Assembly: GCA_029881725.1 (NCBI GenBank)
Contig: JAOUMB010000010.1
Location: 1,539-65,538 of the forward strand
DNA: 64,000 nucleotides
Direction: 5' to 3'
DNA from: Nitrospirota bacterium
Lineage (GTDB): Bacteria > Nitrospirota > JACRHL01
The notes under the pieces are model-generated. The model searched no databases. It saw only the letters and a list, made by a program, of their open reading frames with translations, and was not told the DNA's origin. Below are positions 22,417 through 50,317 of this stretch, in pieces. Each line of letters opens with the position of its first letter. The stretch's first letter is position 1. The translations under genes and the position numbers were made by a program.

Positions 22417-22524
22417 TGGCGGTCACCACCGGTCAATGGGTTTCCTGCTCGAGTTCAAGGCCTGTATCCCTATCACCTGTGCAACCCCGGCTTCCGCCCG
22501 CCGGGTCGCCACCCAATCACTCCC

Positions 22525-31849: not shown

Positions 31850-31899
31850 GATTCGGGTATATCTTTTGTTCAATAAAAAACGATTTAAATAACGTGCTG

Positions 31900-32550
31900 T
31901 TACAGAACGGTGGATGGATCCGGCGCCGGGTCCGGAGTTGGGTCCGGAAATTCGGGCAGTATCTCCCCGGGCGCTTCCCCGGGCGCTTCCCCGGGCGCTT
32001 CCCCGGGCGCTTCCCCGGGCGCTTCCCCGGGCGCTTCCTGGGGCGCGTTTTGGGGCACTTCCTGCGGCTCCGGCTGCGGTGCCGGGAGGACGATCTCGAT
32101 GCTGCGATAATCCTTGCCCTGGCGCACGTCGAACGGCACCGCCTGATCAAAGCGCAGAATCAGATACGGGATGCCGCGCTGCTGCCCGCTCGGCTCGTCC
32201 CCTTCGGGGCCCGCGTCCCCTTCATACAGGATGCTCAGGCGCGGCAGGCCGGGCCGTTCCGGAAGCACCGCCGCCTCGCGCCCGAACAGGATGTCGTCCT
32301 CTGGGAACTGTCCGTCCGGCAGGCGGCGCACCCGCACCACCACTTCCCTGGCCGGGTCATGGGGAAAGTGGTCCACGTACTGGGCGATAAAGCGGAACTC
32401 CACGCGCACCACCAGCCCTTCGGCGGTGGTATCGATGGACACGTCCTCCATCACCCCCTGACGCACCGGCTGTGCCGCCACCGGGGCCGCAAGGCCCAGG
32501 CAGATTCCCAGCACGGCCGCCGCCAGTACGGCACCCGCATGCAAACGCAT
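31900..32550 (-). CDS. Secreted hypothetical protein with a C-terminal (EAPG)n repeat.
   Basis: Signal peptide MRLHAGAVLAAAVLGICLGLAAPVAAQP. Strong RBS GGGGAGGGG. C-terminal PQEAPGEAPGEAPGEAPGEAPGEAPGEIL. Confidence 0.6.
   Translation of the reverse strand: MRLHAGAVLAAAVLGICLGLAAPVAAQPVRQGVMEDVSIDTTAEGLVVRVEFRFIAQYVDHFPHDPAREVVVRVRRLPDGQFPEDDILFGREAAVLPERPGLPRLSILYEGDAGPEGDEPSGQQRGIPYLILRFDQAVPFDVRQGKDYRSIEIVLPAPQPEPQEVPQNAPQEAPGEAPGEAPGEAPGEAPGEAPGEILPEFPDPTPDPAPDPSTVL
31965..32036. repeat. 12-bp tandem repeat (ccccgggcgctt)x6 encoding (EAPG)n.
   Basis: Perfect 12-nt periodicity: gggcgcttccccgggcgcttccccgggcgcttcccc.... Confidence 0.85.
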
Positions 32551-32572: not shown

Positions 32573-34348
32573 TTAAAAGGCGCTGTCGGACACGCGGTGT
32601 TGGCGTGAACGGCTGTCCAGAATGGTGGTCATGCTCGAATTCGTATACACGTGGCACGACCCCGAGCAATCCCTCAACTCCGAAACGGTGTAGTTCACAC
32701 CGGGATACTTTTCATGCGGCCCGGAGCGGTAATTCCCGGAGTGGCACCCGGCGCAATCCGGCTGATAGGCCGGGGCCCGCCAGGTGACGGTTTCGCTGTT
32801 GGAACCGTGGCAGCGGGTGCAGGCCAGCGCCAACCGGTGGTCGCCCGGATAGTTCGGGGACTGGTGGCGGAAGGTGTCCGGAATCCAGGCGGTGGTGGTA
32901 TGGCAGTAGTCGCACGAGCGGCCGGTCTGGAAGTGGGTGCTGGTCTTGCCGGTGGCGTTGGTGCCGTTGTGGCAGGAGTTGCAGGTGCCGGGCGAAACGT
33001 TGGCGTGATCGAACCGGGCCGGCAGCCAGGCCACGGTGGAGTGGCAACTGTCACAACTGGCGGTGGTCTGCACGTGGGTAGCCGTCTTGCCGGTGGCGGT
33101 AATGCCGTTGTGGCAGGTGGAACACGTGCCGGGGGCCACCGCGCTGTGATCAAAAGAGGCCGGGATCCACGCGTTGGTGGTGTGGCAGTTGTCGCAGGTG
33201 TTGTCGCTGGCCACGTGGGTGGCATGTTTGCCGATGGCGGTGGTGCCGTTGTGGCAGTTGAAACAGGTGCCGATCACTTCCAGGTGGTCCACCCGCAGGG
33301 CCGGGATGAACGACACCGTGCTGTGGCAGGCTTCACACAGGCTGGATGTCTGGATGTGGGTGGCGTTCTTGCCGATGGCGGTGGTGCCATTGTGGCAGCT
33401 GAAACAGCCGCCGGTCACCTGGGCGTGGCTGAACACCGCGTTGGCCCAGGCGGCGGTGGTGTGGCAGTCGCCGCAGAGGTTGCTGCTCGGGATGTGGGTG
33501 GCACTCTTGCCGGTGGCAATGAGGCCGTTGTGGCAGGTGGAACATTCCCCGAGCACATCCGCGTGGTCCACGCGGGTAACGGTGGCAAAGCTGGTGGTGT
33601 TGTGGCAGCTTTCGCAGAAATTGGTGGTCAGCGGGTGCGCTGCGTGCTTGCCGGTGGCGGTGGTGCCGTTGTGGCAGGTGGAACAACTGCCGGTCACGCC
33701 GGTATGGTCGAAGCGCGCATTGAACCAGGTGGTCGGCGTATGGCAGTCCTCGCAGACGTTGCTGCTGGGAATGTGGGAAGCCGATTTACCGCTGGCGTCC
33801 ACGCCGTTGTGGCAGCGGAAGCAGTTGCCCACGATGCCGGTATGGTCGAAACGGATCATGCCCCAGGCGGTGGTGGTGTGGCAGTCGCTGCACGGGGCGC
33901 TGGTTTGCGGGTGGGTCGGGGTCTTGCCCGGGGCCACGGTGTTGTTGTGGCAACTGGCGCAACTGCCCAGCACGGAGGCGTGGTCCACCCGCGCCACCGG
34001 GTTCCAGCTGTTGGTGGTGTGGCAGTCGCCGCAAAAGTCGGTGCTCTGGATGTGGTTCTGCGGCTTGCGCGATCCGCTCACCCGCCCGGCGCGGGTGTGG
34101 CAGGCGGCGCACTGGGTGGGGGTGGTCTCGAAGATGCCGCGGATATGGCAGCTTTCACACTCCACCTGCTGGTGCGCGCCGGTCAGCGGAAAACCGCTCT
34201 TGAAGTGGTCGAACTGGGGGCGCCCGGACAGCTGGGCCGCGTCGGACATGGCCGGAATCAGCCAGGTGGCCAGCAGCGCTGCCGCCAGCAGGAGTACCCC
34301 CCACCAGCTCCCGAAGACCCCATCGGATGTGCTTTTATGATGCATCAT
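32573..34348 (-). CDS. Periplasmic multihaem c-type cytochrome with about 21 CXXCH plus 1 CXXXCH (paired/doubled CXXCH repeats).
   Basis: 591 aa with a signal peptide. Haem motifs counted: CESCH, CAACH, CGDCH, CASCH, CSDCH, CFRCH, CEDCH, CSTCH x3, CESCH, CGDCH, CFSCH, CEACH, CFNCH, CDNCH, CDSCH, CNSCH, CDYCH, CTRCH, CAGCH, CSGSCH. Repeating module C..CHT..W....FDH..V.G.C..CHNG.TA.GK..H. RBS GAGGT. Confidence 0.9.
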   Translation of the reverse strand: MMHHKSTSDGVFGSWWGVLLLAAALLATWLIPAMSDAAQLSGRPQFDHFKSGFPLTGAHQQVECESCHIRGIFETTPTQCAACHTRAGRVSGSRKPQNHIQSTDFCGDCHTTNSWNPVARVDHASVLGSCASCHNNTVAPGKTPTHPQTSAPCSDCHTTTAWGMIRFDHTGIVGNCFRCHNGVDASGKSASHIPSSNVCEDCHTPTTWFNARFDHTGVTGSCSTCHNGTTATGKHAAHPLTTNFCESCHNTTSFATVTRVDHADVLGECSTCHNGLIATGKSATHIPSSNLCGDCHTTAAWANAVFSHAQVTGGCFSCHNGTTAIGKNATHIQTSSLCEACHSTVSFIPALRVDHLEVIGTCFNCHNGTTAIGKHATHVASDNTCDNCHTTNAWIPASFDHSAVAPGTCSTCHNGITATGKTATHVQTTASCDSCHSTVAWLPARFDHANVSPGTCNSCHNGTNATGKTSTHFQTGRSCDYCHTTTAWIPDTFRHQSPNYPGDHRLALACTRCHGSNSETVTWRAPAYQPDCAGCHSGNYRSGPHEKYPGVNYTVSELRDCSGSCHVYTNSSMTTILDSRSRQHRVSDSAF

Positions 34349-34393: not shown

Positions 34394-35983
34394 TCACCGT
34401 TCAATGGTGATATCGGAAAACGACTCGGTGGTGTGGCACCGGCCGCAGTCTCTTCCAAACTGTTCGCTGTGGACATCGTCCTGCAGGTGACAGGCACCGC
34501 AGGTGTTGGGCTGTTTGACACCCTTTTTTGAGGGCGTTTTGTGGCACGCGAGGCAGTCCAACCCCTCGTGCTTGCCGTCCAGCTTGAACTCGGTCTGCCG
34601 GTTGTGGTCAAAGGACCACAGGGGCCACCCGTTGGGGTTGTGGCAGGTGCCGCACAGGCTTCCCAGCCGCCGTTTGTGCTCGTCCTGCTTCTTGTGGCAG
34701 GCATAGCACTCCCCTTCGGTTTTCACGTAGCGCCGGTCCAGGTGGCACTCCTCGCACGGGGTGACCGCGTGCTGGCCGATGAGCGGAAACGGCGTCAGGT
34801 CGTGGTCAAAGCGCACCTGATCCCGCCATCCGGTTTCCCGGTGGCACTGGGCACAGTTTTCGCCCTGGCGCCCGTCGTGCACGTCGTCCCCCTTGTGGCA
34901 GGCATAGCAGTCGGTCTTGAGCTCCTCCTTGTACAGCACCCCCTTGTGACAGGACCGGCAACGGGCCTTTTCGTGGGCGCCCTTCAGGCGGAAATCGGTG
35001 TCCTTGTCGTGGTCGAAGATCACCCGGTCCCACGCCCTGGGCGTGTGGCAGGAGTCGCATTTCTCCCCGTAGCGCCCCTTGTGCTCGTCGTCGTTCTTGT
35101 GGCAACTGTGGCAATCGGTCTTGAGTTCGTCCTTGTACAGGTCGCCGGTATGGCACGCTTTGCAGGTGACCTCCTTGTGGCTGCCCTTCAAGGGAAAATC
35201 GGTGTCCTTGTCGTGGTCAAACCGCACCCGGTCCCACTTGTCCGGGGTGTGGCAATCCTCGCACTTGTCGCCGTTGGCGCCCCGATGCACGTCGTTGATC
35301 TTGTGGCAGGCGACGCAGGTGTCGGGCACCCCCTTGTACTTCTCTCCCGGGTGACACATGGCGCAGGCCACGTCCATATGGGAGTCCCTGAGGGGGAAGT
35401 CGGTCTTGTCGTGGTCGAAGGCGGTTTTCTTCCAGCCGGCGGTGGAGTGGCAGTCCTCGCACTTTTCCCCCAGCCGCCCGTCGTGGGCATCGTCTTCCTT
35501 GTGGCAGGCAAGACAGGTGGCGGGGGCATCGCGGAACTTCTTGTCCGGCTTGTGGCAGCCGTCACAACGCACGCGCTGATGGCGTCCCTTCAGGCGGTAA
35601 TCGGTCTGGTTGTGATCGAAGGTTTCGCGGTTCAGGCCCACGACATCGGCACTCCGGCCCACGTGATCGGTGTGGCAGACCTGACACTCCTGATTCGCCA
35701 CCTGGGGGGAACGGCCGTGAAACCCGCGTTTTTTACCCACGTCGGACGCCACATCCTTGTGGCAGTCCAGGCACAGGTTGTTCTGCACCCCCTTGCTGAA
35801 CCGTTTGTGGCAGTTGGTGCAGGTGTCCTCGTACTTGGCGTGCCCGGAAATCAACTCGCCGGGCATTACCAGCCGCTCAAGCGGACCGGCGAGGGCGCTA
35901 TGGGGAAACGTCAGCACAGCCATGATAAAAAGCGCCAGCGCCGCTACCAGGGCGCGCCGGACGAAAAAATGCCGGTGCGGCAT
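34394..35983 (-). CDS. Periplasmic multihaem c-type cytochrome with about 21 CXXCH (polymer of c7/c3-like trihaem units).
   Basis: Signal peptide MPHRHFFVRRALVAALALFIMAVLTFPHSALA. 21 CXXCH motifs, from CTNCH through CGRCH. Repeating module C..CH..D.H.G..G..C..CH......W....FDH..T.F.L.G.H....C..CH. Its ATG overlaps the stop of the upstream gene (TGATG). Confidence 0.9.
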   Translation of the reverse strand: MPHRHFFVRRALVAALALFIMAVLTFPHSALAGPLERLVMPGELISGHAKYEDTCTNCHKRFSKGVQNNLCLDCHKDVASDVGKKRGFHGRSPQVANQECQVCHTDHVGRSADVVGLNRETFDHNQTDYRLKGRHQRVRCDGCHKPDKKFRDAPATCLACHKEDDAHDGRLGEKCEDCHSTAGWKKTAFDHDKTDFPLRDSHMDVACAMCHPGEKYKGVPDTCVACHKINDVHRGANGDKCEDCHTPDKWDRVRFDHDKDTDFPLKGSHKEVTCKACHTGDLYKDELKTDCHSCHKNDDEHKGRYGEKCDSCHTPRAWDRVIFDHDKDTDFRLKGAHEKARCRSCHKGVLYKEELKTDCYACHKGDDVHDGRQGENCAQCHRETGWRDQVRFDHDLTPFPLIGQHAVTPCEECHLDRRYVKTEGECYACHKKQDEHKRRLGSLCGTCHNPNGWPLWSFDHNRQTEFKLDGKHEGLDCLACHKTPSKKGVKQPNTCGACHLQDDVHSEQFGRDCGRCHTTESFSDITIER

Positions 35984-38145
35984 CAGTACATGTGTACCGC
36001 GAGCACGTGGATCAGCGCCGTAAACACCATCATCAGGAACAGGGGAAAGTGCAACAGGTGCCACAGGCCAAAAATCCGTTCGTAAAAGCCGAACTCCGCC
36101 ACCGAATGCACGGAGCGGTAGTATTCCTTAAAATGCTTGCGCAACGCCTTGCGATGGCGCGACAACGTCTTGCGGTCCCACCCGTCCTGCTCGGCGCGCT
36201 GCTTCAGGGCCACCCGCGCCACGCGCCGGATGCGCAGCCGGGTCCAGATGGTCCGAGGGCGCACGGTGAGCAGCCGCCAGGTGCGGCCAATCACCCCGGT
36301 GGGGGCGTTCAGCCACTTTTCCAGCCGCAGCAACCGCTCATTCATCTCTTCGGGAAATTCGATGTCCCCCTCCAGTGTACCGTGCGCGGATTTCAAACCC
36401 ATGCGCATTTCGGCGGCGGTGGCGCGGCGCCCATACAGGCCGTGATGGATCTTGGTGTACATGAATCGCCCGAACAGGCCGCTGAAGGCCACCACCAGCA
36501 TGGTGAACAGGGCGATCTGGCTGTTCAGGGAACCCAGGGCGAAATTGGAATGGAATACCACCAGCAGCGGCCCCACCACCCCCATGATCATGTGGGTCTG
36601 GAACCAGTACTTGACCGGTCCCATGCGGCGCATGAAATTCATTTTCTTGCGCATGGGGTAGAGCAGCAACAAGGCCATCATCACCGCCCCGGCAATGCCC
36701 AGGTAGTAACCGGTACCGGTTTCGGCGGACAGGTAGCCGGTCTCGCGCTGGGTCCATCCATACAGGGTGGCGCCGAACACGGCAAACATGAACAGCCCCC
36801 ACCCCAGACCGGAGGAAGCATCCGGAACGGCGGGGTCGTTGGCCGGGCGCGGTTCGGGAACCGGAATCGGACTGGCCTTGGCGGCCGGAACCGCAGCGGC
36901 CTTCTTGGCCTTCGGCGCACCATCCTGGCCACCCCCACCGGAACGGCCGGACGGCACGTGCGGGCGGCCGGGGCCACCGGACTTGCGCGCCGGGGTCGAG
37001 GCACATTGCTGGACCTGCGGGGCCGGGTCCGCCGCCGGAGCCGACACGGGCACCACCTGGCTGGCGGCTTCCTTGGAACGCACTGCGGACACCGTCGCGG
37101 CCACCTGAGCGGCCAGGGAGTCCTGGGGTGCAACCTGAGGCACGGCAGCGGGTGTCACCTGCGGCGCGGGCGTGGAAATTTTGGGAATGGCCACCCTGGG
37201 AGTGGCCTGGGGCGCCGGGGCGGGCACGGTCTGGGCGGCGGGCTTCACCGTCACCACCGCAGCCGCACGGGCAGCGGGAAGTTCACCCGGATTGCGGGCC
37301 GCATCGATAATCGCCTTTAACGCAGCCGCGTTGCGGTCCGGCGCCTCCGCCGGGGTACGGGCAGCCGCCACCAGTTTACGGACTGCGGCTTCACGCCCGG
37401 CCTCCTGAGTGGACTGGGGGGTGGCCGCCTTCGAGATCGCGGCGGTCGATGTCGGTTTCGGAACGGCCATCTTGGGGGCAGCGGCCTGCGGGGCAGCCAT
37501 CTTGGGGGCAGCCGCCTGCGGAGCAGCCATCTTGGGGGCAGCGGCCTGCGGAGCAGTCATCTTGGGGGCAGCCACATTATCGCCCAGCGTCATTGCCACC
37601 AGGCGGGCCATTGCCTCGCGCCGGATCGCCTGACGCGCGGCGGTTGATTGGGTATCTTCTATGGCGGTATCCGCCGGGGCCTGGGCAGCGGTTTGTGCCT
37701 GCACCGCGTCCATGATGCGTTCGGCTTCATCTCCAAACGCCACCGACAGCAGCATGGCCAGTTGCTCGCGGGTGGAGCGGGAACGTTGCGGCAACGGAGG
37801 CGCCGGCTGAGGCGCGGCGCCGGAACCAATCGGACCCTGAATGTGGCCGCCAGGCGGCGGCCCGATCAAGCCCGACGGGGTTCCCGAACCGCTCCCAACC
37901 CGACGCGCGATTTCCGAAGCGTGCTCGCCAAAGGCCAGTGACAGAAGGGATTCCAGCTCCGCACCGGATACCGGCTCCCCTTTCAACGGACGCGATTCCA
38001 CATCCAGACCAAAGAAATCGCCCTTCATCGGACCGGCATCGTCCAGGCTGCCCCAGCCTCCCGGGTGAACCCGGGAACCGGTGCGGTCAGACGACGGATC
38101 AAAGGATTCCAGTGCGTCCATATCCATGCCGGAAAAATCTTCCAT
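35983..38145 (-). CDS. Membrane protein with a roughly 440-aa Ala/Pro-rich low-complexity N-terminal region and a C-terminal 5-TM domain carrying two bis-His helices (ferric-reductase/cytochrome-b-like).
   Basis: 720 aa. Strong RBS GGGAGGTG plus ATG MEDFSGMDMDAL. In-frame (KMAAPQAAAP)n repeat. TM helices: GWGLFMFAVFGATLYGW; YYLGIAGAVMMALLLLYP; YWFQTHMIMGVVGPLLVVFHSNF (two His 14 residues apart); IALFTMLVVAFSGLFGRFMY; WHLLHFPLFLMMVFTALIHVLAVHMY (two His 14 residues apart). Confidence 0.65.
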   Translation of the reverse strand: MEDFSGMDMDALESFDPSSDRTGSRVHPGGWGSLDDAGPMKGDFFGLDVESRPLKGEPVSGAELESLLSLAFGEHASEIARRVGSGSGTPSGLIGPPPGGHIQGPIGSGAAPQPAPPLPQRSRSTREQLAMLLSVAFGDEAERIMDAVQAQTAAQAPADTAIEDTQSTAARQAIRREAMARLVAMTLGDNVAAPKMTAPQAAAPKMAAPQAAAPKMAAPQAAAPKMAVPKPTSTAAISKAATPQSTQEAGREAAVRKLVAAARTPAEAPDRNAAALKAIIDAARNPGELPAARAAAVVTVKPAAQTVPAPAPQATPRVAIPKISTPAPQVTPAAVPQVAPQDSLAAQVAATVSAVRSKEAASQVVPVSAPAADPAPQVQQCASTPARKSGGPGRPHVPSGRSGGGGQDGAPKAKKAAAVPAAKASPIPVPEPRPANDPAVPDASSGLGWGLFMFAVFGATLYGWTQRETGYLSAETGTGYYLGIAGAVMMALLLLYPMRKKMNFMRRMGPVKYWFQTHMIMGVVGPLLVVFHSNFALGSLNSQIALFTMLVVAFSGLFGRFMYTKIHHGLYGRRATAAEMRMGLKSAHGTLEGDIEFPEEMNERLLRLEKWLNAPTGVIGRTWRLLTVRPRTIWTRLRIRRVARVALKQRAEQDGWDRKTLSRHRKALRKHFKEYYRSVHSVAEFGFYERIFGLWHLLHFPLFLMMVFTALIHVLAVHMY
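37440..37575. repeat. 30-bp tandem repeat, about 3.5 copies, inside the membrane-protein gene.
   Basis: Unit catcttgggggcagc(g/c)gcctgcgg(g/a)gcag(c/t). Copies start near 37468, 37498, 37528 and 37558. Encodes KMAAPQAAAP repeats on the minus strand. Confidence 0.75.
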
Positions 38146-38571
38146 TTCACCTCCCGAAGTCCTCGCAAACGGCGGTCCCTGCCCAATCCCGGTTTAGTAA
38201 GCAAGGAATATGCCATGCATCGGATCTCAAGCAAAGGTGTCTTTTTTTCAACACCTTGTGCCCCTCCCCCCCTGCCCGTTTCTGGCGTCCACTCAACGGG
38301 AAATGGTGCATTTCTACGCGGAGGGAAGTCAATTTTTGCACACGGTGTTCAAAATCGAACGAACTCCCCGCACCCCGCCCCGAATTGTACACGCCATCCA
38401 CCCACGTACTTGGTTGGACGATCCGGATGACCGAAAAGTTCCCGGTACCGGGCCAGCGGGGAGTCATCTCCGTTCCCGAATGGCAAAAAATATGCAGAGG
38501 ACTTCCAAGCCGCCGACCGGTGCGGTTACCATCTAGATGGAGTCCGAACGGGGGAGGCGGAGAGGAGAACT

Positions 38572-39921
38572 TTGGAAAAACTGCCGATTGGTCCGGAAAT
38601 TCTGGGCAAGCTGCCCTTCGACCCGGAATTGCTGATCTATATCGTCCCGCTGGTGGTGATCTTTCTTTTTTATGCAGGTCGCCGCTCCAGCGCCCACAAA
38701 AAAAGCAGCCGGGTCCTGCGCGAAAACCTGGAGGCGGGCCTCACCGAACCCGCATCGTTGCATCCGCTCATCGACGAGTCTCGTTGCATCGGTTGCGCCT
38801 CATGCGTCACCGCCTGCCCGGAGAGCAAATACGAGGTGCTGGGCATCGTGCACGGCAAGGCGGAACTGATCAACCCCACCGCCTGCATCGGCCACGGCGC
38901 CTGCAAGACCGCCTGCCCGGTGGATGCCATCACCCTGGTGTTCGGTACTGAAAAACGCGGGCTGGACATCCCCAACGTCAAACCCAACTTCGAAACCAAC
39001 ATCCCCGGACTGTTCATTGCGGGGGAACTGGGTGGCATGGGCCTCATCGGCAATGCCGTGGAGCAGGGCCGCCAGGCCATGGACAACATTGCCAAACTGT
39101 CCGGCATGGGCAAGGGCGACGGGTACGACGTGGTGATCGTGGGGGCCGGACCATCGGGCTTTTCCGCCACCCTGGGCGCCATGGAAAAGAAGCTGCGCTA
39201 CCTGACCGTGGAGCAGGATTCCCTGGGCGGCACCGTATACAACTTTCCACGCGGCAAACTGGTCATGACCCGGCCGGTGGACCTGCCCATCGTGGGCAAG
39301 GTCAGGTTCACGGAAACCACCAAGGAAAAATTGCTCGAGTTCTGGACCGACGTGGAAAAAAAGACGGGGGTCAAAATCAGTTACAAGGAACGGGTGGACG
39401 ACATCACCCCCTCCGGCAAGGGGTTCGTGGTCAAAACCAGCAAGGGCACGTACAAGACCCGTGCGGTGCTGCTGGCCATTGGCCGCCGGGGCACCCCGCG
39501 CAAGCTTGATGTGCCGGGCGAGGAAACTCCCAAGGTCACCTACCGGCTGATCGACCCGGAGCAGTACACGGGCCAGCATGTGCTGGTGGTGGGCGGCGGC
39601 GACAGTGCCCTGGAGGCCGCCACCAGCATCGCCGATCAGGCCGGTACCACGGTAACCCTGTCCTATCGCAGCGACGCCTTCGGGCGCGCCAAGGGCAAGA
39701 ACCGGGAGCGGGTGGACGCCGCCGTGGCAGCCGGGCGCCTGAATGTGATGCTCAAAAGCACGGTCAAGGAAATCACCCCGGACAAGGTGGTGATCGACCA
39801 CGACGGCACCCTGCACACGCTCAGCAACGACGCCATCATCGTGTGCGCCGGCGGCATCCTGCCCACCGGATTCCTGAAACAGATCGGCATTCAGGTGGAC
39901 ACCAAATATGGCACCGCCTGA
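38572..39921 (+). CDS. Membrane-anchored 2x[4Fe-4S] ferredoxin-domain FAD/NAD(P)-binding oxidoreductase (thioredoxin-reductase-like fold).
   Basis: TTG start preceded by GAGGAG. N-terminal TM helix LLIYIVPLVVIFLFYAG. CIGCASCVTACP and CIGHGACKTACP (two CxxCxxCxxxCP clusters). Dinucleotide motifs DVVIVGAGPSGFSA and HVLVVGGGDSALEAA. Confidence 0.8.
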   Translation: MEKLPIGPEILGKLPFDPELLIYIVPLVVIFLFYAGRRSSAHKKSSRVLRENLEAGLTEPASLHPLIDESRCIGCASCVTACPESKYEVLGIVHGKAELINPTACIGHGACKTACPVDAITLVFGTEKRGLDIPNVKPNFETNIPGLFIAGELGGMGLIGNAVEQGRQAMDNIAKLSGMGKGDGYDVVIVGAGPSGFSATLGAMEKKLRYLTVEQDSLGGTVYNFPRGKLVMTRPVDLPIVGKVRFTETTKEKLLEFWTDVEKKTGVKISYKERVDDITPSGKGFVVKTSKGTYKTRAVLLAIGRRGTPRKLDVPGEETPKVTYRLIDPEQYTGQHVLVVGGGDSALEAATSIADQAGTTVTLSYRSDAFGRAKGKNRERVDAAVAAGRLNVMLKSTVKEITPDKVVIDHDGTLHTLSNDAIIVCAGGILPTGFLKQIGIQVDTKYGTA

Positions 39922-41944
39922 CGCCGCACCCCCTTCCCGGCGCTGGTGGCCCGTCGCCGTCCTTTTGCTGCTGATGCTGCCCCTGTCCCTGCCCGCCCCG
40001 GCGCTGGCGGACCCCATGGATGACGTGAAGGCCGCCGTGCGCCTGCGCGACTATCCACGTGCCATCCGGCTGCTGACCCCCATTGCGGAAAAGGGCGATG
40101 CCGAGGCCCAGTACCAGCTCGGCTCCCTGTACCGCTCCGGACGCGCCGGGGACAATCCGAAGGCCGCGTTCCGCTGGCTGCTGGCCGCCGCCCAGCAGGG
40201 GCACGCCAAGGCGCAGTATTCGGTCGGCACCCTCTATGAAACGGGCACGGGGGTGGAGCAGAGCGCCGACCGTGCCCTGGTGTGGTATCAGAAGGCTTCC
40301 GCCCAGGGACACGACGGGGCCCAGACCCGCGCCGAAGCCCTCCAGGGTACCCTCGGAAGTAAAAAGGACCGTCCCAGCCGTCAGGAATTGACCGCGGCCC
40401 TTCTGGCCGCCGCCGAGAGCGGGGATGACCGCGAAGTGCGCAGGCTCCTGAAACAGGGGGGCGACGCCAACGCCACCGACGCCGCCGGGCACTCCGCGCT
40501 GATGAACGCCGCCGCCCAGGGGCATCTCAAGGTGGTGCGGATTCTGCTCAAGGCGGGCGCCAAGCCCAACCTGGCGGACAAATACGGGGATACCGCCGTC
40601 ACCCTGGCCGCCCGCCACGGGCGTCCGCGCACCCTGGTCGCCCTGCTGGACGCCGGGGGCGATGTCAACGCCACCGACGGCAACGGCAACACCCCCCTGA
40701 TCCTGGCGGCGCTGCACGATCACGCCAAGACCACCGAGTTGCTGATCAAGGCCCGCGCCCGGCTCAATACCCGGAACAAGAACGGAGAAACCGCCCTCGA
40801 CGTGGCCGTGCGCAAGGAGCACCGCAAGCTGGTCGCCCAGTTGGAAGCGGCGGGTGCCACCCGCACCGCACAGGCGGCGGAACCCGCCATACCTCAGTCC
40901 GTGGAGGCGCTGGAGGCGTTGCAGGCCGGCGGCGACGACGCCCTTTACGCGGGGTGGTCCACCCTGGCGGTGGCCGCCTGGCGTGGTCAGGCGGAGGCCA
41001 TGAAAAAGCTGCTGGCCCAGGGCGCCAGGGTGGACGCCCGCGACCCGGAGGGGCACACCCCTCTGAGCCGCGCCGCGTGGCAGGGCCACCTGGAAGCGGT
41101 CAACCTGTTGCTGGCCCGCAAGGCCAACCCCAATGCCTACCAGAAAGACGGCCGGAGCCCCATCCTGTGGGCAGCGGAAAACGGTCACACCGAGGTGGTG
41201 ACCGCCCTGCTCAAGGCCGGTGCCCGCGCTGGAGAGCGGCAGGGCAAGGATGGCGACAGCGCCTTGATGCTGGCGGTGCAGAAGGGCAGCGCCGAAACCG
41301 TGGAGGTGCTGCTGAAGGCCGGAGCCGATCCCAACATGGCCCTGCCCGACGGCGAAACCGCGCTGCTGCGCGCCGCCGCCCGCGGCAGCCTGGGAATCGT
41401 CCGCCAATTGCTGGCTGCGGGGGCCCAGGTGAATCATCGGGACCAGGATGGCCGTACCGCCCTCTGGTTCGCCGCCAATGCCGGCGCGGTCAAGACCTGC
41501 GGCGTGCTGCTGGGCGCCAGGGCCAATGTGGCCTACGTGGATGCCTCCGGTCACACGGCCCTGTCGCGGGCCGCCCTCGGTGGACACTCCGGGGTAATCG
41601 CCGCGCTGCTGAAACAGGGAGCCCAGCCCGACACACGCACCCGGGAGGGAAACACACCCCTGTTGCTGGCCGCCTCCGAAGGGCACCTGGAGACGATCCA
41701 GCGCCTGCTGGAAGCAGGCGCCAAGGTGAACACCCAGAACGAGGCCGGAGACACCGCCCTGATCCGCGCCGTCATCGGTCGCCATCCGCGCGTGGTAGGC
41801 TTGTTGCTCAATCAGGGGGCCGATCCGAAGATTCGCAACAAGAAGCGGCAAACCGCCCGCTCGCTGGCAGAGGAATCCGGGGACGAAAACCTGATCCGCG
41901 TGTTCGAAAAGCCGGAAGGCAAAAACCTGCTCGACCTGTTTTGA
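39908..41944 (+). CDS. Secreted protein with N-terminal Sel1-like repeats and about 14 ankyrin repeats.
   Basis: Signal peptide MAPPDAAPPSRRWWPVAVLLLLMLPLSLPAPALA. Sel1 units AQYQLGSLYRSGRAGDNPKAAFRWLLAAAQQGHAKAQYSVGTLYETGTG.... ANK consensus repeated, for example DAAGHSALMNAAAQGHLKVVRILLKAGAKPN, DGNGNTPLILAALHDHAKTTELLIKARARLN. The ATG overlaps the upstream stop by 14 bp. Confidence 0.85.
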   Translation: MAPPDAAPPSRRWWPVAVLLLLMLPLSLPAPALADPMDDVKAAVRLRDYPRAIRLLTPIAEKGDAEAQYQLGSLYRSGRAGDNPKAAFRWLLAAAQQGHAKAQYSVGTLYETGTGVEQSADRALVWYQKASAQGHDGAQTRAEALQGTLGSKKDRPSRQELTAALLAAAESGDDREVRRLLKQGGDANATDAAGHSALMNAAAQGHLKVVRILLKAGAKPNLADKYGDTAVTLAARHGRPRTLVALLDAGGDVNATDGNGNTPLILAALHDHAKTTELLIKARARLNTRNKNGETALDVAVRKEHRKLVAQLEAAGATRTAQAAEPAIPQSVEALEALQAGGDDALYAGWSTLAVAAWRGQAEAMKKLLAQGARVDARDPEGHTPLSRAAWQGHLEAVNLLLARKANPNAYQKDGRSPILWAAENGHTEVVTALLKAGARAGERQGKDGDSALMLAVQKGSAETVEVLLKAGADPNMALPDGETALLRAAARGSLGIVRQLLAAGAQVNHRDQDGRTALWFAANAGAVKTCGVLLGARANVAYVDASGHTALSRAALGGHSGVIAALLKQGAQPDTRTREGNTPLLLAASEGHLETIQRLLEAGAKVNTQNEAGDTALIRAVIGRHPRVVGLLLNQGADPKIRNKKRQTARSLAEESGDENLIRVFEKPEGKNLLDLF

Positions 41945-42104
41945 CCGGACGGGGGTAGAATCACTCCCGGTATCGTTCCCTATAAGGTTGACCGGAAACT
42001 TGCCGATACGGCAGATACGCCCGGCCAAACCGGGGACCACTGTTTTTTTGCCCGCGCCACGCCGGGCGGTTACACGGACGTTCATGAAAGCCAGGGAGTT
42101 GGTC

Positions 42105-42611
42105 ATGATCAAGCGCTTGAGCCCGATTCTGTTTATTGTTCTGCTGGCCGCCTGCCAGCCCAAGGAAGGCGCCAAACCCGCGGATTCGGCCGGTGCCGGC
42201 CCGCAGTCCTCCCCCAGCGCCGAATCACGCCCGGCAGGCAGCGCCGAAGCGGAAGTGGCGAACTACATCCGTACCCACATGATGGTCAAGGAAGTGCGCA
42301 TCGGCGAGGGACGCCAGGGCGCCGACGGCGGCGAGACGATCCGCGCCCTGTACGGCGTGGTGGCCAACGGTGGCACCCGCGACCTGAAAAAAGTGGTTAT
42401 CCAGGCGGATCTGCTGGATGCGAACGGAAAACCGGTGGCAGCCGCCGAGTTCGTGCCGGTGATCGCCACCCGCGACGGAGCGGTGGACGAGGCGGGGCTG
42501 CTCAAGGGCCATTCGGAACGGGCCTTCGGGTATTCCATCGAGCATCTGGTTCCCAAAGAGTGGAAGGGGACCGCACGGGTGATCGTGACCGGCCTTGAAT
42601 TCCACGGTTGA
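42105..42611 (+). CDS. Hypothetical lipoprotein.
   Basis: AGGGAG RBS. MIKRLSPILFIVLLAACQP (lipobox LAAC). Low-complexity linker followed by a small globular domain. Confidence 0.6.
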   Translation: MIKRLSPILFIVLLAACQPKEGAKPADSAGAGPQSSPSAESRPAGSAEAEVANYIRTHMMVKEVRIGEGRQGADGGETIRALYGVVANGGTRDLKKVVIQADLLDANGKPVAAAEFVPVIATRDGAVDEAGLLKGHSERAFGYSIEHLVPKEWKGTARVIVTGLEFHG

Positions 42612-42639
42612 GGGCCATCCCTCCGACCGGTCCTCATCC

Positions 42640-44583
42640 ATGTTCCCTTCCGGCCGCCTGAACGCCCGGTGGCACACGCCGCTGCACCTGCTTTTACTGG
42701 CGCTGGTGTGTCTGGGGGTGTACGCCAACGGCTACCATCACGTATTCCAGCTGGACAGTTCCCACGTTCTGGAGGACAACCCCAGCGTCCGCAGCCTGGG
42801 CAACATCCCGTCCTATTTCACCGATCCGGGCACCTTTTCGGTGCTGTATGCCAATGTGGACTACCGGCCGGTGCTACAGGTCACCTATGCCCTGAATTAC
42901 TGGCTGGGCGGCTACCACATGCCGTGGTGGCACTTCACCCAGATCCTGCTGCACTTCCTGTGCGCCGTGGGGATCTACCTGCTGTGCCGCCGGGTGATAG
43001 CGCTTTCCGAACCGGAACACTCCGACGGGGCCTGGATCCCACTGGCCGCGGGATTGTTGTTTGCCCTGCACCCCACCGCGTCCGGGGTGGTCAATTACCT
43101 GTCCGCCCGCTCGTCGTTGTTGACCGCCGCATTTTTACTGCCGTCCATCCTGCTGTACATGGACTCCCTGGAGGGTCCGCATAACCGCCTTCGGCGGGCG
43201 ATGGCCGCGCTCCTGTACACGCTGGCCCTGTTCTCAAAAATCGAGGCCGTGGGGTGTCTGGCGGTCTACTTCATGTTCGAGATGTGGCACACTGCGCGCA
43301 CCGGGGGCCACCGGAACGGATTTTTTCGGGATCTGGCCGCAACCCTCACCCCGTCGGTGTTACGGCGTCTGGCGCCGTTTCTGGCGGCTACCGCCGCCTA
43401 TCTGGCCATTCGCGCCCCGCTCATGGCGCGTTTTCCGTTCGGTGATTCCCGCGAGGGCACCGGCATTGGCAACCTGGACTACCTGTACACCCAGTTGGTG
43501 GTGTGGTGGGCCTATGTGGGCAAGTGGTTCGCCCCGGTGGACCTGGTAGCCGACCAGGGCAACTATCCGGTTTACCGCAGCCTGCTGGAGCCCACGGTGC
43601 TGGTGGCGGCGGGCGGCTGGGCGTTGGTCACCGCGCTGCTGATCACCGGGTGGCAAAAACGGCCCCATCAGGCGGTGCTGGCTATCTCGGCACTGGCCCT
43701 GCTCAGCCCCACCTCGTCCATTCTGCCGCTGGCGGAAATGCTCAACGAACACCGCCCCTATCTGCCCATCGGGATTCTGTCGCTGGTGTGGATCATCCCC
43801 GCCGCCCGGGCCGCCGAACGCATGGCCTCGGAAAGCCGTGGCTTCCCCCTGTATGTGCCGGGGCTGGTGGCGCTGTTGTGCGGGCTGGGCGCCCTCACCT
43901 TCGACCGCAACCGGGTGTTTCTGACCACCGAGAGCTACTGGCTGGACGTAATAGAAAAAGCCCCCTCCGCCCGCGCCTATGTGAACTACGGTCTGACCCG
44001 CATGACCGCAGGCGAGATAGAGACCGCCCAGGAGTATTTTTTAAAGGCCCAGGAGATGTCGCCCAACTGGCATATCGTGCACATCAACCTGGCGGTCACC
44101 TACCGGGAACAGGGGCGGCTCGATCTGGCCGAGCAGTATTACAACCGCGCGGTGGAGAGCGATACCTTCACCGGCGGCTCCCTCTCCTGGCGGGGCGAAT
44201 ACCGGCTTACCCGCGGTCGCTATGCGGAAGCCCTGGCCGACTTTCTGGCCAGCCAGCCGAAAAGCCTGGAGCACTACCGCAACGCCAAGGGGGCGGCGAC
44301 GGCCTTCGCCGGACTGGGCGATGCGCAAAACGCGTTTGTGCACACGGCCCGTTGCCTGAAACTGAACGCGGAGCAGACCGGACGCGACATCGTGGTCATT
44401 GCCGAGCCGTTCTTCACCCTTCCCTCCGGGGCCGCTCCCGGTCTGGCCTATTTCCAGAAACTGGCTGAACGTCTGCCGGACACCTGGTGGGTGCATGCCA
44501 ACATCAGCACCCTGGCCTTCCGCCTCGGCCAGAATGAACTGGGACAGCAGGCCGACGCCCGCGCCCAGGCGCTCAAGGGGTAG
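42640..44583 (+). CDS. Polytopic membrane protein with C-terminal TPR repeats (TMTC/DUF1736-like, GT-C-fold glycosyltransferase-like).
   Basis: N-terminal half has about 10 TM helices with a DYRP(V/L) motif (ANVDYRPVLQVTYALNYW). C-terminal roughly 200 aa are TPR-like (AYVNYGLTRMTAGEIETAQEYFLKAQEMSPNWHIVHINLAVTYREQGRLDLAEQYYNRAVE...). Confidence 0.7.
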   Translation: MFPSGRLNARWHTPLHLLLLALVCLGVYANGYHHVFQLDSSHVLEDNPSVRSLGNIPSYFTDPGTFSVLYANVDYRPVLQVTYALNYWLGGYHMPWWHFTQILLHFLCAVGIYLLCRRVIALSEPEHSDGAWIPLAAGLLFALHPTASGVVNYLSARSSLLTAAFLLPSILLYMDSLEGPHNRLRRAMAALLYTLALFSKIEAVGCLAVYFMFEMWHTARTGGHRNGFFRDLAATLTPSVLRRLAPFLAATAAYLAIRAPLMARFPFGDSREGTGIGNLDYLYTQLVVWWAYVGKWFAPVDLVADQGNYPVYRSLLEPTVLVAAGGWALVTALLITGWQKRPHQAVLAISALALLSPTSSILPLAEMLNEHRPYLPIGILSLVWIIPAARAAERMASESRGFPLYVPGLVALLCGLGALTFDRNRVFLTTESYWLDVIEKAPSARAYVNYGLTRMTAGEIETAQEYFLKAQEMSPNWHIVHINLAVTYREQGRLDLAEQYYNRAVESDTFTGGSLSWRGEYRLTRGRYAEALADFLASQPKSLEHYRNAKGAATAFAGLGDAQNAFVHTARCLKLNAEQTGRDIVVIAEPFFTLPSGAAPGLAYFQKLAERLPDTWWVHANISTLAFRLGQNELGQQADARAQALKG

Positions 44584-44644
44584 CCCCGCCCCGACCGGCC
44601 CGGGAAGCCCCCCCTTCCCGAATCCAGATTTCCTGAACAAAAAA

Positions 44645-44676
44645 GGCCCGGACGAATCGTCCGGGCCTTTTTTGAT
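44645..44676. terminator. Bidirectional rho-independent terminator between convergent genes.
   Basis: aaaaaaggcccggacgaatcgtccgggcctttttt: perfect 9-bp stem ggcccggac/gtccgggcc flanked by an A-run and a T-run. Confidence 0.75.
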
Positions 44677-47498: not shown

Positions 47499-47659
47499 CT
47501 CAAATTCTCCCCGCATCAGGTCGATCTTGCGGGTGGCCGGGCACAGGTTCAGATTCCCGGTGTTCTCTGCTTTTGAATCTTGTTTCATACTCAGTCCAAC
47601 CCTTGGTCACACAAAAAAGAGGGGGTGGGGGTGGCCGAAGCCACCCCCACCCGTTGGGG

Positions 47660-50266: not shown

Positions 50267-50317
50267 CTTAATACTCCCACTGTTCACAGAACGACACATC
50301 CTTGTTGTTCATTTAAA

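Follow-up and report, generated by a model that had tools for sequence, protein, structure and literature searches.

PCC3 was described as a cluster of four genes, in which an inner-membrane protein (IMP) is modelled to feed the quinone pool (He et al. 2017, PMC5566968; Hoover et al. 2023, PMC10734462). The IMP has been argued to be a di-haem-b relay, the PCC3 of Amphritea atlantica has 63 and 21 haem sites and, in PCC4, an Fe-S protein gene adjoins the IMP gene (He et al. 2017, PMC5566968). PCC3 is frequent among iron oxidisers; S. lithotrophicus ES-1 down-regulates its two PCC3 clusters on Fe(II) and, in one study, the IMP gene of PCC3 copy 2 was up-regulated in the iron-oxidising Sideroxydans CL21. 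MsrQ receives its electrons from Fre, a cytosolic NAD(P)H reductase (PMC12525009, PMC5676040), which sets a precedent for a split system. In the PCC3 literature, as far as it is searchable, the two genes described below as Fd-FAD and Sel1/Ank are mentioned nowhere.

The window (the whole stretch of 64,000 nucleotides analysed, from a Nitrospirota bacterium) carries the following features:

29036..31849, minus strand: PCC3 outer-membrane component, porin-like (SPOR match, position in PCC3 loci and sequence inspection)
32573..34348, minus strand: PCC3 multihaem cytochrome of extracellular type (cytA), 21 CxxCH, signal peptide, Pfam Cytochrome_C7 and Paired_CXXCH
34394..35983, minus strand: PCC3 periplasmic 21-haem cytochrome (cytB), 21 CxxCH; gene call of 529 aa, ORF open to 36064
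35983..38145, minus strand: PCC3 IMP with two WX3HX13H motifs and SGXXG
38146..38571, no strand: divergent intergenic region, 426 bp, GC 0.55-0.56
38572..39921, plus strand: Fd-FAD, 449 aa, TTG start after a GGAGAGGAG Shine-Dalgarno
39908..41944, plus strand: putative secreted Sel1/ankyrin (Sel1/Ank) protein, 678 aa, 2 Sel1 and ~14-15 Ank repeats
42105..42611, plus strand: small lipoprotein, 168 aa, lipobox LLAAC
42640..44583, plus strand: TPR/GT-C membrane protein, 647 aa, TM domain at residues 1-~430 and TPRs at ~430-647
44638..44674, no strand: predicted bidirectional intrinsic terminator, A6-GGCCCGGACG-AAU-CGUCCGGGCC-U6, from a computed fold

The minus strand operon is a PCC3 cluster in the sense of He et al. 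2017, because its IMP motifs match the published definition, each cytochrome carries 21 CxxCH motifs and the cluster of Amphritea japonica (61-haem and 21-haem cytochromes) is homologous to it gene for gene. The sequence-only reading had recognised a cytochrome operon but missed both this published identity and the IMP as the likely partner of Fd-FAD. CytA is 42-49% identical to repeats of the A. japonica 61-haem cytochrome and cytB 49.5% identical to its 528-aa 21-haem cytochrome; cytB homologues with 43-55% identity are present in nearly all loci. The porin-like ORF is open to 32146, with a likely start at Met100 followed by a signal peptide. Its product carries three SPOR-like repeats (Pfam SPOR, E 8e-18), a TPR-like stretch and a barrel-like C-terminal part of ~450 aa, a putative beta-barrel that ends in ...GYRIDF; this C-terminal half is kept at the porin position across PCC3 loci, and SPOR was also found in the porin-position homologues of L124, L126 and L127. 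The IMP is made of a 436-aa Ala/Pro-rich N-terminal extension, probably cytoplasmic and including a 30-nt tandem repeat (37459-37572), and of a conserved 5-TM domain (residues ~437-720; 35983-36837), and its AF2 model shows five TM helices with a long cytoplasmic helical extension. In an alignment of 42 homologues, H-x13-H is invariant on TM3 and TM5 (H83, H97, H264 and H278) and SGxxG lies on TM4. No Pfam or NCBIfam model matched the IMP, Ferric_reduct included, nor did a NOX or STEAP fold. The family counts 3461 cluster representatives, and no fusion of IMP with Fd-FAD was present among the best 150 of them. We know of no quinone-site motif on record for the IMP.

All four ORFs of the plus strand unit were confirmed in the order Fd-FAD, Sel1/Ank, lipoprotein and TPR/GT-C, and two further assemblies that contain this sequence carry independent gene calls that agree with them. 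Gene calls and domain searches thus bore out the four genes, divergent layout and domain calls of the sequence-only reading, and likewise its overlap between the Fd-FAD stop and the Sel1/Ank start (39908-39921, 14 nt), its start of the last gene (42640, in an ORF open from 42595) and its lower-GC divergent spacer, put at ~425 bp (426 bp here, GC 0.55-0.56 compared to a window mean of 0.655). The spacer includes a block of ~32 nt (38329-38360) common to a Leptospirillia relative; a simple sigma-70 scan of 38146-38571 yielded no consensus promoter and Rfam no match. Folding of the terminator gave a 17-pair hairpin (intergenic z = -6.4), built from 10 G/C-rich pairs, 6 A-U pairs contributed by the flanking tracts and a closing C-G, with sub-threshold Thr_leader matches on both strands (Rfam). 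It closes the plus strand unit and separates the TPR/GT-C gene from a convergent multicopper-oxidase-like gene. No terminator-like fold was found in the 160-bp gap between the Ank and lipoprotein genes (z = 0.27), so that co-transcription of all four genes may be possible in this genome.

Conservation of the locus was analyzed in two scans, one of 32 genome loci anchored on Fd-FAD and one of 80 metagenome loci anchored on IMP. The resulting 112 loci are mostly from Proteobacteria wherever named, and the linkage survey does not reach the PCC3 of classic iron oxidisers (ES-1, Leptothrix). The IMP and cytochromes adjoin Fd-FAD in 25 of the 32 genome loci; most exceptions have short flanks, and three loci (L007, L022, L030) show ~2 kb upstream of Fd-FAD without IMP. 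Fd-FAD was present in 50 of the 80 metagenome loci, and each of the 30 loci without it is cut off by a contig end on one side or both. Among the 50 linked loci, the arrangement was divergent in 43, co-directional upstream in 4, convergent after the porin in 2 and co-directional after the porin in 1; the existence of four gene arrangements argues for a linkage under selection rather than for one layout kept by shared ancestry. The linkage was also found in cultured Amphritea japonica and in further independent contexts, and the linked hosts, judged by source titles or names, are Alpha-, Beta- and Gammaproteobacteria, Nitrospirota and Leptospirillia. On gene order, synteny establishes the first two genes as conserved, previously unremarked companions of PCC3 at ~75-80 unrelated bacterial loci. 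In contrast, neither the lipoprotein gene nor the TPR/GT-C gene was seen in any of the 112 loci, and both are absent after Ank in another Nitrospirota PCC3 locus; they recur only in one Leptospirillia MAG, in the same gene order with three extra genes inserted and with proteins 38-68% identical. The linkage to the adjacent cytochromes that had been suggested for the whole unit therefore stands for genes 1-2, with strong conserved synteny, and fails for genes 3-4. The plus strand unit is a composite of two PCC3 companions and a local addition, and the four genes as one conserved functional unit were rejected on the same counts.

Fd-FAD combines a TM anchor (residues 18-36) and a basic stretch with a ferredoxin domain holding two Fe-S clusters (64-123) and an FAD/NAD(P)H domain of thioredoxin-reductase (TrxR) fold (185-447), matched in Pfam by the Fer4 dicluster and Pyr_redox_3/2 (E 6e-42). 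The single N-terminal anchor followed by a basic cluster is conserved in homologues, and by the positive-inside rule both redox domains would face the cytoplasm. In an alignment of 71 sequences, C72, C78, C82, C105, H108, C111 and C115 are invariant (H108 in 71/71), the second cluster motif being C-x2-H-x2-C-x3-C-P, and no conserved Cys was found in the flavin domain or elsewhere outside the Fe-S motifs. At what we take to be the position of the YpdA active-site Cys, within GxGxxG, Fd-FAD has Ser and most homologues Ala. As a redox-active Cys pair is absent, a disulfide reductase was rejected; Fd-FAD would rather transfer electrons in the manner of the TrxR-type ferredoxin:NAD(P)+ reductases (FNR), with a ferredoxin of its own fused to it. 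The two best PDB chains for residues 185-447 were 7a76 ('thioredoxin reductase') and 7a7b (Bdr/YpdA), with E 2e-27 to 3e-27, while TrxR-type FNRs matched at E ~1e-13 to 1e-15; the assignment as a YpdA equivalog was dismissed as below cut-off (165 vs 340 bits).

The second gene product carries 2 Sel1 and ~14-15 Ank repeats (Ank_2, E 3e-90 in Pfam; repeats counted by 33-residue-spaced motifs), in keeping with the ~14 first read from the DNA. The signal peptide that had also been proposed is plausible by inspection, and signal-like N-termini are present in ~45 homologues. Sel1/Ank follows Fd-FAD in 12/26 genome loci and in many metagenome loci; a DUF6502 gene replaces it in Thiobacillus-type loci and it is thus no universal component. 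Exported by Sec, the protein would probably assist the long cytochromes in the periplasm, as a scaffold or chaperone.

Genes 3 and 4 are a lineage-specific addition that appears to encode a lipoprotein and a TPR-bearing glycosyltransferase of GT-C fold. The lipoprotein matched only FxLYD, weakly and sub-threshold, and its single homologue found (38% identity) lies directly 5' of the TPR/GT-C gene in Leptospirillia L036. In the last gene Pfam detected TPRs only; its reading as a TMTC-type protein holds for the architecture, a GT-C fold followed by TPRs, and is not borne out by sequence for membership of TMTC/DUF1736 or PMT_2, as none of 47 family members matched the DUF1736, PMT or PMT_2 models at E<=1. 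Relatives adjoin GT2 genes, a small flippase-like gene and GT87 genes, with a trio of GT2, small EamA-like protein and GT-C in the Leptospirillia relative, and, for three other family members, the neighbouring genes concern sugars or the cell envelope and include no cytochromes. A polyprenyl-phosphate-linked sugar is the probable donor of the enzyme, and its acceptor is probably periplasmic.

Combined, these results lead us to lean, if only slightly, towards a composite unit in which Fd-FAD is wired to PCC3 for electron export; beyond synteny and motifs, all of this is inferred. Fd-FAD, held in the inner membrane by one helix with its Fe-S and FAD/NAD(P)H domains in the cytoplasm, would dock on the PCC3 IMP. 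Through its four invariant His (two H-x13-H pairs, on TM3 and TM5), the IMP would bind two haems b, one towards either face of the membrane. The path would start from cytoplasmic NAD(P)H and lead through FAD and the two Fe-S clusters, of which the second bears an invariant His ligand, to the inner and the outer haem b of the IMP and on to the 21-haem periplasmic cytochrome, the outer-membrane component and the 21-haem outer cytochrome. Such a chain would resemble a split NADPH oxidase or ferric reductase, or the MsrQ-Fre pair, stretched over the inner and the outer membrane. Electrons that leave the cell run downhill with the membrane potential in their favour, and the path from Fe(II) to NAD(P)+ is uphill and against it; in the PCC3 subtype with Fd-FAD, electron export is thus more likely than Fe(II) oxidation. 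If true, a conduit proposed for iron oxidation would be connected to NAD(P)H in the cytoplasm. We count against this account that NAD(P)H electron export by such a path conserves no energy, and likewise the lack of an IMP/Fd-FAD fusion among the best 150 of 3461 representatives, the up-regulated CL21 IMP gene and the three loci without IMP.

Under the published PCC3 model, the IMP exchanges with the quinone pool and electrons come from extracellular Fe(II); Fd-FAD would have a separate job, e.g. NAD(P)H-dependent redox repair or regulation, and linkage would reflect co-regulation. The quinone coupling proposed by He et al. 2017 (PMC5566968), the frequency of PCC3 in iron oxidisers, the CL21 response and the lack of an Fd-FAD/IMP fusion among the best 150 representatives, or of a structural tie between the two, speak for this model; yet a linkage kept through four arrangements, ~75 loci and several phyla, a membrane-anchored Fd-FAD with an Fe-S wire and no obvious soluble partner, and the ES-1 response make it unlikely, though the best placed of the alternatives. 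Somewhat less probable is that Fd-FAD and IMP are biogenesis factors, not a wire, that supply periplasmic reductant for giant-cytochrome maturation (keeping CxxCH thiols or haem reduced), with Sel1/Ank as apocytochrome chaperone. In A. japonica the IMP and Fd-FAD genes do flank a CcmH/CycH-like TPR gene, repeats of the Sel1, Ank and TPR types serve as scaffolds that bind peptides, cytochromes of 21-61 haems are a heavy maturation load, and DsbD and CcdA, through which NADPH-derived reductant crosses the membrane, give a precedent. However, the IMP is constant in PCC3 and has haem-type His motifs, not Cys pairs, Thiobacillus-type clusters with similar cytochromes lack Sel1/Ank, and the general Ccm is normally enough for multihaem cytochromes.

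Along the lines of the sequence-only reading, all four genes would cooperate, with glycosylation of the ankyrin protein, the lipoprotein or the cytochromes by the GT-C/TPR enzyme as part of conduit function. This would account for the missing Ank-lipoprotein terminator, the strong terminator after the last gene, the gene order repeated in the Leptospirillia MAG and the TPRs, which suggest a protein acceptor. The absence of genes 3-4 from both scans and from the other Nitrospirota PCC3 locus, and the cytochrome-free neighbourhoods of the three other family members, render it more doubtful than either of the preceding explanations. Least probable of all is electron import from donors of very low potential outside the cell (cathodes, Fe(0), H2-charged minerals), with Fd-FAD making NAD(P)H directly and bypassing reverse electron transport: although hosts include chemolithoautotroph-type lineages (e.g. 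Thiobacillus, Nitrosomonadales) and TrxR-type ferredoxin-NADP reductases are reversible, established thermodynamics sets inward movement against the membrane potential, Fe(II)-type donors are several hundred mV uphill to the NAD(P)+ couple (-320 mV), and the 5-TM IMP seems to offer no evident coupling site (proton or ion channel).

Compared with known systems, the last gene product shares with TMTC1-4, PMT and other GT-C enzymes (ArnT, STT3/PglB/AglB, ALG12) the invariant Asp opening the first periplasmic loop (L-D-[DS]), and with TMTCs the C-terminal TPR domain; it differs from TMTC/PMT in being bacterial and matching no DUF1736, PMT or PMT_2 model, and from its relatives in that no GT2 or flippase gene adjoins it in this genome. 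Fd-FAD resembles RnfB in that a TM anchor at the N-terminus leads into an Fe-S ferredoxin domain predicted on the cytoplasmic side (weak sequence match to chain 8ahx_B, E 2e-6), whereas the other Rnf subunits are absent here and ferredoxin and flavin reductase form a single protein. TrxR-type FNRs (YumC type) and YpdA/Bdr are the closest PDB relatives of residues 185-447 and share the GxGxxG and GGGDSA dinucleotide motifs; unlike TrxR, Fd-FAD has no CxxC pair and, unlike FNR and YpdA, it also includes a membrane anchor and a ferredoxin domain with two clusters. All four genes that define PCC3 (PMC5566968, PMC10734462) are present in the upstream operon, with a porin-like outer-membrane protein, another large multihaem cytochrome, an IMP with 5 TM helices, SGXXG and two WX3HX13H, and a periplasmic cytochrome with 21 haems. 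It departs from the published cluster by the N-terminal SPOR repeats of the porin-like protein and, here and at ~75 other loci, by linkage to a Fer4-FAD/NAD(P)H protein with a membrane anchor and, frequently, to a putative secreted Sel1/ankyrin protein. Finally, the proposed path shares with NOX, ferric-reductase-domain proteins and MsrQ-Fre of E. coli (PMC12525009, PMC5676040) the order of cytoplasmic NAD(P)H flavoenzyme, transmembrane haem b protein and extracytoplasmic acceptor, with His pairs of 13-residue spacing on the third and fifth helices. It differs in that the IMP has 5 TM helices, not 6, and a cytoplasmic helical insert of ~110-130 aa, that an Fe-S ferredoxin module would stand between flavin and haem, and that the acceptor would be a multihaem wire in place of O2, an Fe(III) chelate or MsrP.

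The four plus-strand open reading frames proposed by the sequence-only reading were confirmed at their coordinates by ORF inspection and gene calls, and products of 449, 678, 168 and 647 aa are also called on two other public assemblies with the same sequence. The unit reads as follows:

38572-39921, +, membrane-anchored ferredoxin/FAD protein (Fd-FAD), 449 aa
39908-41944, +, Sel1/ankyrin protein (Sel1/Ank), 678 aa
42105-42611, +, lipoprotein, 168 aa
42595/42640-44583, +, TPR membrane protein (GT-C/TPR), 662/647 aa

The domain content that had been read from the sequence was borne out by Pfam for genes 1, 2 and 4: a Fer4 dicluster and Pyr_redox_3/2 in Fd-FAD, two Sel1 repeats and a long ankyrin array in Sel1/Ank (about 14-15 repeats when counted from motif spacing), and TPRs only in the fourth product. 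No Pfam domain was found in the lipoprotein. The divergent spacer preceding Fd-FAD is 426 bp long, with a GC content of 0.55-0.56 against 0.655 for the window. Folding identified a perfect bidirectional terminator at 44638-44674, which ends the plus-strand unit, and revealed no terminator-like structure in the 160-bp gap 5' of the lipoprotein gene; a single transcript of all four genes is therefore possible in the window genome. A simple promoter/terminator scan returned no promoter and also missed the strong terminator seen by folding, and no Rfam family scored above threshold. The spacer contains a block of about 32 nt (38329-38360, TCAATTTTTGCACACGGTGTTCAAAATCGAAC) including the imperfect palindrome TTTTGCAC...GTTCAAAA; it has about 78% identity to a block in the intergenic region of the homologous locus of a Leptospirillia MAG (L036, 2392-2928) and may be a regulator site, as a candidate drawn from only two sequences.

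On the other side of the spacer, the first gene of the divergent operon is for a membrane protein of 720 aa. Genes for two cytochromes, both with 21 CxxCH motifs, come next, and the last gene encodes a large SPOR-repeat protein. The porin-multihaem-cytochrome gene cluster PCC3 consists of a porin, an extracellular multihaem cytochrome, a periplasmic cytochrome (median 21 haems) and an inner-membrane protein (IMP) of about 300 aa with five TM helices, SGXXG in TM4 and WX3HX13H in TM3 and TM5 (He et al. 2017, PMC5566968). The 720-aa protein has no Pfam or NCBIfam match and its conservation is confined to the last ~285 residues, which carry W513-x3-H517-x13-H531, S554-G-L-F-G558 and W694-x3-H698-x13-H712; the H-x13-H motifs on TM3 and TM5 and S-G-x-x-G on TM4 are invariant among 42 aligned homologues. 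It thus has the signature of the PCC3 IMP, apart from an extra N-terminal extension of 436 aa. One cytochrome, cytB, matches the PCC3 periplasmic cytochrome in its 21 CxxCH motifs, is 49.5% identical to a 21-haem protein of Amphritea japonica and is probably periplasmic, judging by its signal peptide; the other, cytA, is homologous to the 61-haem cytochrome of that species. A conserved C-terminal part of about 450-640 aa of the porin-like protein occupies the porin position in most loci, and its terminus (...GYRIDF) is similar to an OMP beta-signal, suggesting a putative barrel. Each gene of the divergent operon has its homologue in the A. japonica cluster, whose cytochromes have 61 and 21 haems, and PCC3 is also listed for Amphritea atlantica, there with 63 and 21 haem sites (He et al. 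2017, PMC5566968). By its IMP signature, its haem counts and this gene-for-gene homology, what had been described as a cytochrome operon is a PCC3 cluster.

Several features of these PCC3 proteins were observed besides. The porin-like gene (29036-32146, -) has its likely start at Met100, at 31849, and its product carries a signal peptide followed by three SPOR-like peptidoglycan-binding repeats, a TPR-like stretch and the barrel-like C-terminal part. SPOR is also present on the porin-like homologues of A. japonica (L124, 1-809) and of two Nitrospirota MAGs (L126, 505-3015; L127, 590-3460); passages on the porin in the PCC3 papers make no mention of the domain. The IMP extension (36838-38145, -; 436 aa) is Ala/Pro-rich and includes a tandem repeat at 37459-37572 with a 30-nt unit in 3.8 copies (AAPKMAAPQA-type). 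IMP homologues, which amount to about 3,500 representatives when clustered at 50% identity, are mostly of about 300 aa, some having TPR, SPOR or low-complexity extensions. The window IMP is itself missing from the homologue list retrieved with its own C-terminal domain, though the gene call exists on the ENA contig.

Synteny of all four plus-strand genes with multihaem cytochromes had been suggested as a check; it held for the first two genes and failed for the last two. In a scan anchored on Fd-FAD with one genome per species, which gave 32 close loci of 56-64% identity from Alpha-, Beta- and Gammaproteobacteria and one Gemmatimonadota MAG (by record titles), the IMP and both cytochrome genes, usually with the porin-like gene, adjoin Fd-FAD in 25 loci. 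In four of the seven exceptions the upstream flank is about 1.1 kb or less; the remaining three (L007, L022 and L030) have about 2 kb of upstream flank without an IMP gene and are possible true negatives. Among 80 metagenome loci anchored on IMP, Fd-FAD is present in 50. All 30 others are cut off by a contig end on at least one side, so that none is a clean negative. Fd-FAD is divergent from IMP in 43 of these 50 loci; four have a co-directional string Fd-FAD-Ank-IMP-cytochromes-porin, and Fd-FAD lies after the porin gene in convergent orientation in two and co-directionally in one. Single look-ups gave more such pairings, in Nitrospirota, Leptospirillia, JGI metagenomes and A. japonica, whose genome (AP014545.1, 2392731-2414056) has the full set of 61- and 21-haem cytochromes, IMP, Fd-FAD and Sel1/Ank. 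Sel1/Ank comes after Fd-FAD in 12 of the 26 genome loci with adequate flank and in the majority of metagenome loci; its start frequently overlaps the Fd-FAD stop. The 112 loci of both scans include none with the lipoprotein gene, the TPR membrane protein gene or the two multicopper-oxidase-like genes downstream; these recur only in one Leptospirillia MAG, and in a second Nitrospirota genome the operon stops after Ank. The conserved unit, as defined by gene neighbourhood, is PCC3 with Fd-FAD, Sel1/Ank being a frequent addition and genes 3 and 4 a local one. In Thiobacillus-type loci, and in some metagenome loci, a gene for a DUF6502 protein of about 287 aa lies beside Fd-FAD (L011, 11435-12304; L025, 11379-12239; L038, 1497-2330); it stands in the place of Sel1/Ank and may encode an alternative accessory component.

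The closest solved relatives of Fd-FAD residues 185-447 are YpdA/Bdr and TrxR-type ferredoxin-NADP+ reductases, the latter with E values of 1e-13 to 1e-15 (sequence against solved structures). The flavin domain carries GAGPSG and GGGDSA motifs, and Y365-R366 and R372 are invariant in 71 sequences. The fused ferredoxin domain is consistent with a role as a TrxR-type ferredoxin-NAD(P)+ reductase. A disulfide reductase of the YpdA/TrxR kind can be ruled out: the score against the YpdA/Bdr equivalog (TIGR04018) is 164.6 bits, below the cut-off of 339.9, and the flavoprotein has no redox-active CxxC pair, the sole Cys outside the Fe-S motifs, C425, being kept in 52% of the 71 sequences. Disulfide chemistry is excluded by this lack of a conserved Cys in the flavin domain. 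The ferredoxin part departs from the standard 2x[4Fe-4S] pattern of two CxxCxxCxxxCP motifs. The window protein has the first motif in full, and the second Cys position of this motif is occupied by S, A, G or T in 35% of the homologues (C 46, S 21, A 2, G 1, T 1 among 71); the second motif (residues 105-116) is C-x2-H-x2-C-x3-C-P, with its His invariant in 71 of 71. Given this variable first motif and the His in the second, the cluster types are uncertain, the options being a His-ligated [4Fe-4S] or, in some members, a [3Fe-4S] cluster. His-ligated clusters often lie at the electron exit of a protein, as does the distal cluster of [NiFe] hydrogenases, and by analogy a His-ligated cluster at the electron exit of Fd-FAD is a lead worth naming. 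The homologue alignment shows conservation of the N-terminal helix and, in every case, a basic cluster after it; by the positive-inside rule the cofactor domains would be cytoplasmic. The family has at least 8000 candidates at E <= 1e-10; the 120 matches listed are of 426-451 aa and bear, where named, generic names only.

On the IMP side, the two H-x13-H motifs on TM3 and TM5 correspond to the two bis-His motifs of the ferric-reductase superfamily, haem binding being predicted from the sequence. By the charge rule, the loop between TM2 and TM3 and the long basic insert between TM4 and TM5 would be cytoplasmic, so that each pair would have one His close to the inner face and one close to the outer, the arrangement expected of two stacked b haems. 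In an AF2 model (pLDDT 81.5) the protein has five TM helices, and TM5 extends into a long cytoplasmic helical bundle that is plausible as a docking surface. Membership of the NOX/STEAP/MsrQ superfamily is unsupported. The IMP has no Pfam family at E<=0.01, its homologues have no precomputed Pfam domain, Ferric_reduct (PF01794) included, and its fold, with five helices and not six, gave no match to solved NOX or STEAP structures; a likeness to NOX in the way it works is retained and membership is dropped for these reasons. No fusion of IMP with Fd-FAD was found among the top 150 family representatives, in which the IMP domain is always C-terminal, with N-terminal extensions of the TPR, SPOR or low-complexity kind and never Fer4 or FAD. 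A di-haem-b relay for IMP was already suggested by He et al. 2017, but coupled to quinones, and in PCC4 an Fe-S protein gene adjoins the IMP gene (PMC5566968). Going beyond synteny and motifs, we infer a wire in which NAD(P)H would reduce the FAD of Fd-FAD and, through it, the two Fe-S clusters; these would pass electrons to the two haems b of IMP, and from there electrons would reach the 21-haem periplasmic cytochrome and an outer-membrane complex.

The direction of flow can be considered from thermodynamics. With the NAD(P)H couple at -320 mV, transfer outward via haems is downhill and is helped by the inside-negative membrane potential; transfer from Fe(II) to NAD(P)+ is uphill by hundreds of millivolts and runs against the membrane potential too. 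No coupling site is visible, and on these thermodynamic grounds the Fd-FAD link favours electron export. The reported down-regulation of both PCC3 clusters on Fe(II) in S. lithotrophicus ES-1 (2022 ES-1 study) fits export; the rise of one PCC3 IMP gene in the iron-oxidising Sideroxydans CL21 (2025 study) agrees with it less well. If export is correct, PCC3, which is widely listed as a candidate iron oxidase, would be an electron-export machine, with extracellular metal reduction, a redox safety valve and extracellular superoxide production as candidate purposes.

The ankyrin protein had been read as bearing a signal peptide, and this was corroborated by about 45 homologues with similar signal-peptide-like N-termini, which start with a hydrophobic segment and have an AxA-type site immediately ahead of the conserved motif L-(D/E)-D-A-K-x-A-I. 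By these features, Sec export appears conserved. Tat export is rejected: SRRWW occurs only in the window protein, the homologues having ordinary signal-peptide-like N-termini. Sel1/Ank could accordingly be pictured as a periplasmic scaffold or chaperone for the long cytochromes. A competing explanation gives Sel1/Ank and its neighbours a role in cytochrome maturation; in its favour, a CcmH/CycH-like TPR gene lies inside the A. japonica cluster, between the PCC3 IMP and Fd-FAD genes (L124, 8879-9709), and hints at a tie to cytochrome c maturation.

The fourth product had been likened to TMTC-type GT-C proteins with TPRs, which is right as an architectural description, TMTC family membership and the mannosylation-like activity read from it being candidate readings: the protein has a GT-C membrane fold, confidently modelled by AF2 (pLDDT 90), the acidic residue D39 at the first extracytoplasmic loop and C-terminal TPRs at about 430-647. 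Its family has more than 389 members, and its membrane domain is without a Pfam model. The first outer loop opens with an invariant L-D39, and D-Y-R-P at 74-77, K200/E202 and E366...H371 are likewise invariant in the family; position 40 is D in 31 of 47 members and S in 16, the window protein having the "DS" common to a third of members. The 25 most frequent of the 61 Pfam families matched by 47 members (E<=1) are TPR-type or related helical-repeat families only, with DUF1736, PMT and PMT_2 absent among them. The full Pfam table of the window's own protein likewise holds only TPR-type/helical-repeat families and none of these three, and in a PDB sequence search only the TPR part was matched. 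The family may be counted as a further uncharacterised bacterial look-alike of TMTC. Relatives of the GT-C/TPR protein are encoded near GT2, GT87 and dTDP-rhamnose genes rather than near cytochromes. A single homologue of the lipoprotein was found, encoded immediately upstream of the orthologous GT-C gene in the Leptospirillia MAG; the lipoprotein may be a partner or substrate of the GT-C protein. In that MAG, Ank is separated from the lipoprotein/GT-C pair by an insert with genes for a GT2, a 117-aa four-helix EamA-like protein (possibly a small flippase subunit) and a methyltransferase (L036, 7317-9362); this insert and the GT-C gene make up the classic trio for periplasmic glycosylation, and the window genome has no insert at the same site.

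Other neighbours in the window were noted. Two multicopper-oxidase-like proteins with signal peptides (44724-46028, -, and 46110-47588, -) are encoded convergently with the operon and kept at the same position in the Leptospirillia MAG with 61-70% identity; they may have a link to metal oxidation. A 2459-aa surface-type protein (54412-61791, -) combines Cu-oxidase_3 with SdrD_B, PKD, beta-helix and dockerin domains, and has as neighbours a subtilase and a protein with collagen triple-helix repeats (Pfam Collagen, E 1e-96) at 51972-53918 (-) and 47660-50299 (-). Immediately beyond the PCC3 porin gene and not conserved with it, a 2018-aa alpha-2-macroglobulin (22525-28581, -) lies beside a PBP1C-type penicillin-binding protein (20065-22422, -), a usual pairing.

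PCC3 is widespread, has so far been approached by comparative genomics and expression studies only and is often cited as a possible Fe(II) oxidase. The word "ankyrin" is nowhere in He et al. 2017, Hoover et al. 2023 (PMC10734462) or the 2025 Sideroxydans CL21 study; "ferredoxin" is absent from He et al. and the CL21 study and, in passages of Hoover et al., is used in other contexts (Rnf, Fdx). "Pyridine nucleotide" is never used in the 2022 ES-1 study, and a search of papers and supplements gave nothing on the neighbours of the ES-1 PCC3 clusters (Slit_0866/0871/1445/1450). We found no literature linking PCC3 to ankyrin, NADPH, a flavoprotein or ferredoxin in a search of incomplete coverage, and prior notice is possible. 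What is new is that a published, uncharacterised conduit gains two further conserved components and a proposed alternative link to the cytoplasm. Fd-FAD beside IMP offers a concrete, testable cytoplasmic end for this conduit, and since the whole set is present in the cultured A. japonica, with a complete genome, it is directly testable. Outward flow would call for a different interpretation of PCC3 genes in iron-cycling metagenomes, and the wire would add a new kind of transmembrane electron relay.

Our furthest-reaching reading, a tentative one that we hold with rather less than even confidence, is that PCC3 and Fd-FAD form a modular two-membrane bacterial counterpart of NADPH oxidases and ferric reductases. 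Electrons would pass from cytoplasmic NAD(P)H through fused flavin and Fe-S centres with a His-ligated exit cluster, a new di-haem-b family and 21- to 60-haem wires to the exterior, with a dedicated periplasmic ankyrin scaffold. The nearest working analogues of the proposed path are the NADPH oxidases and ferric reductases themselves and MsrQ-Fre of E. coli, in which Fre, an NAD(P)H reductase of the cytosol, delivers electrons to the membrane haem protein MsrQ, which serves a periplasmic enzyme (PMC12525009, PMC5676040).
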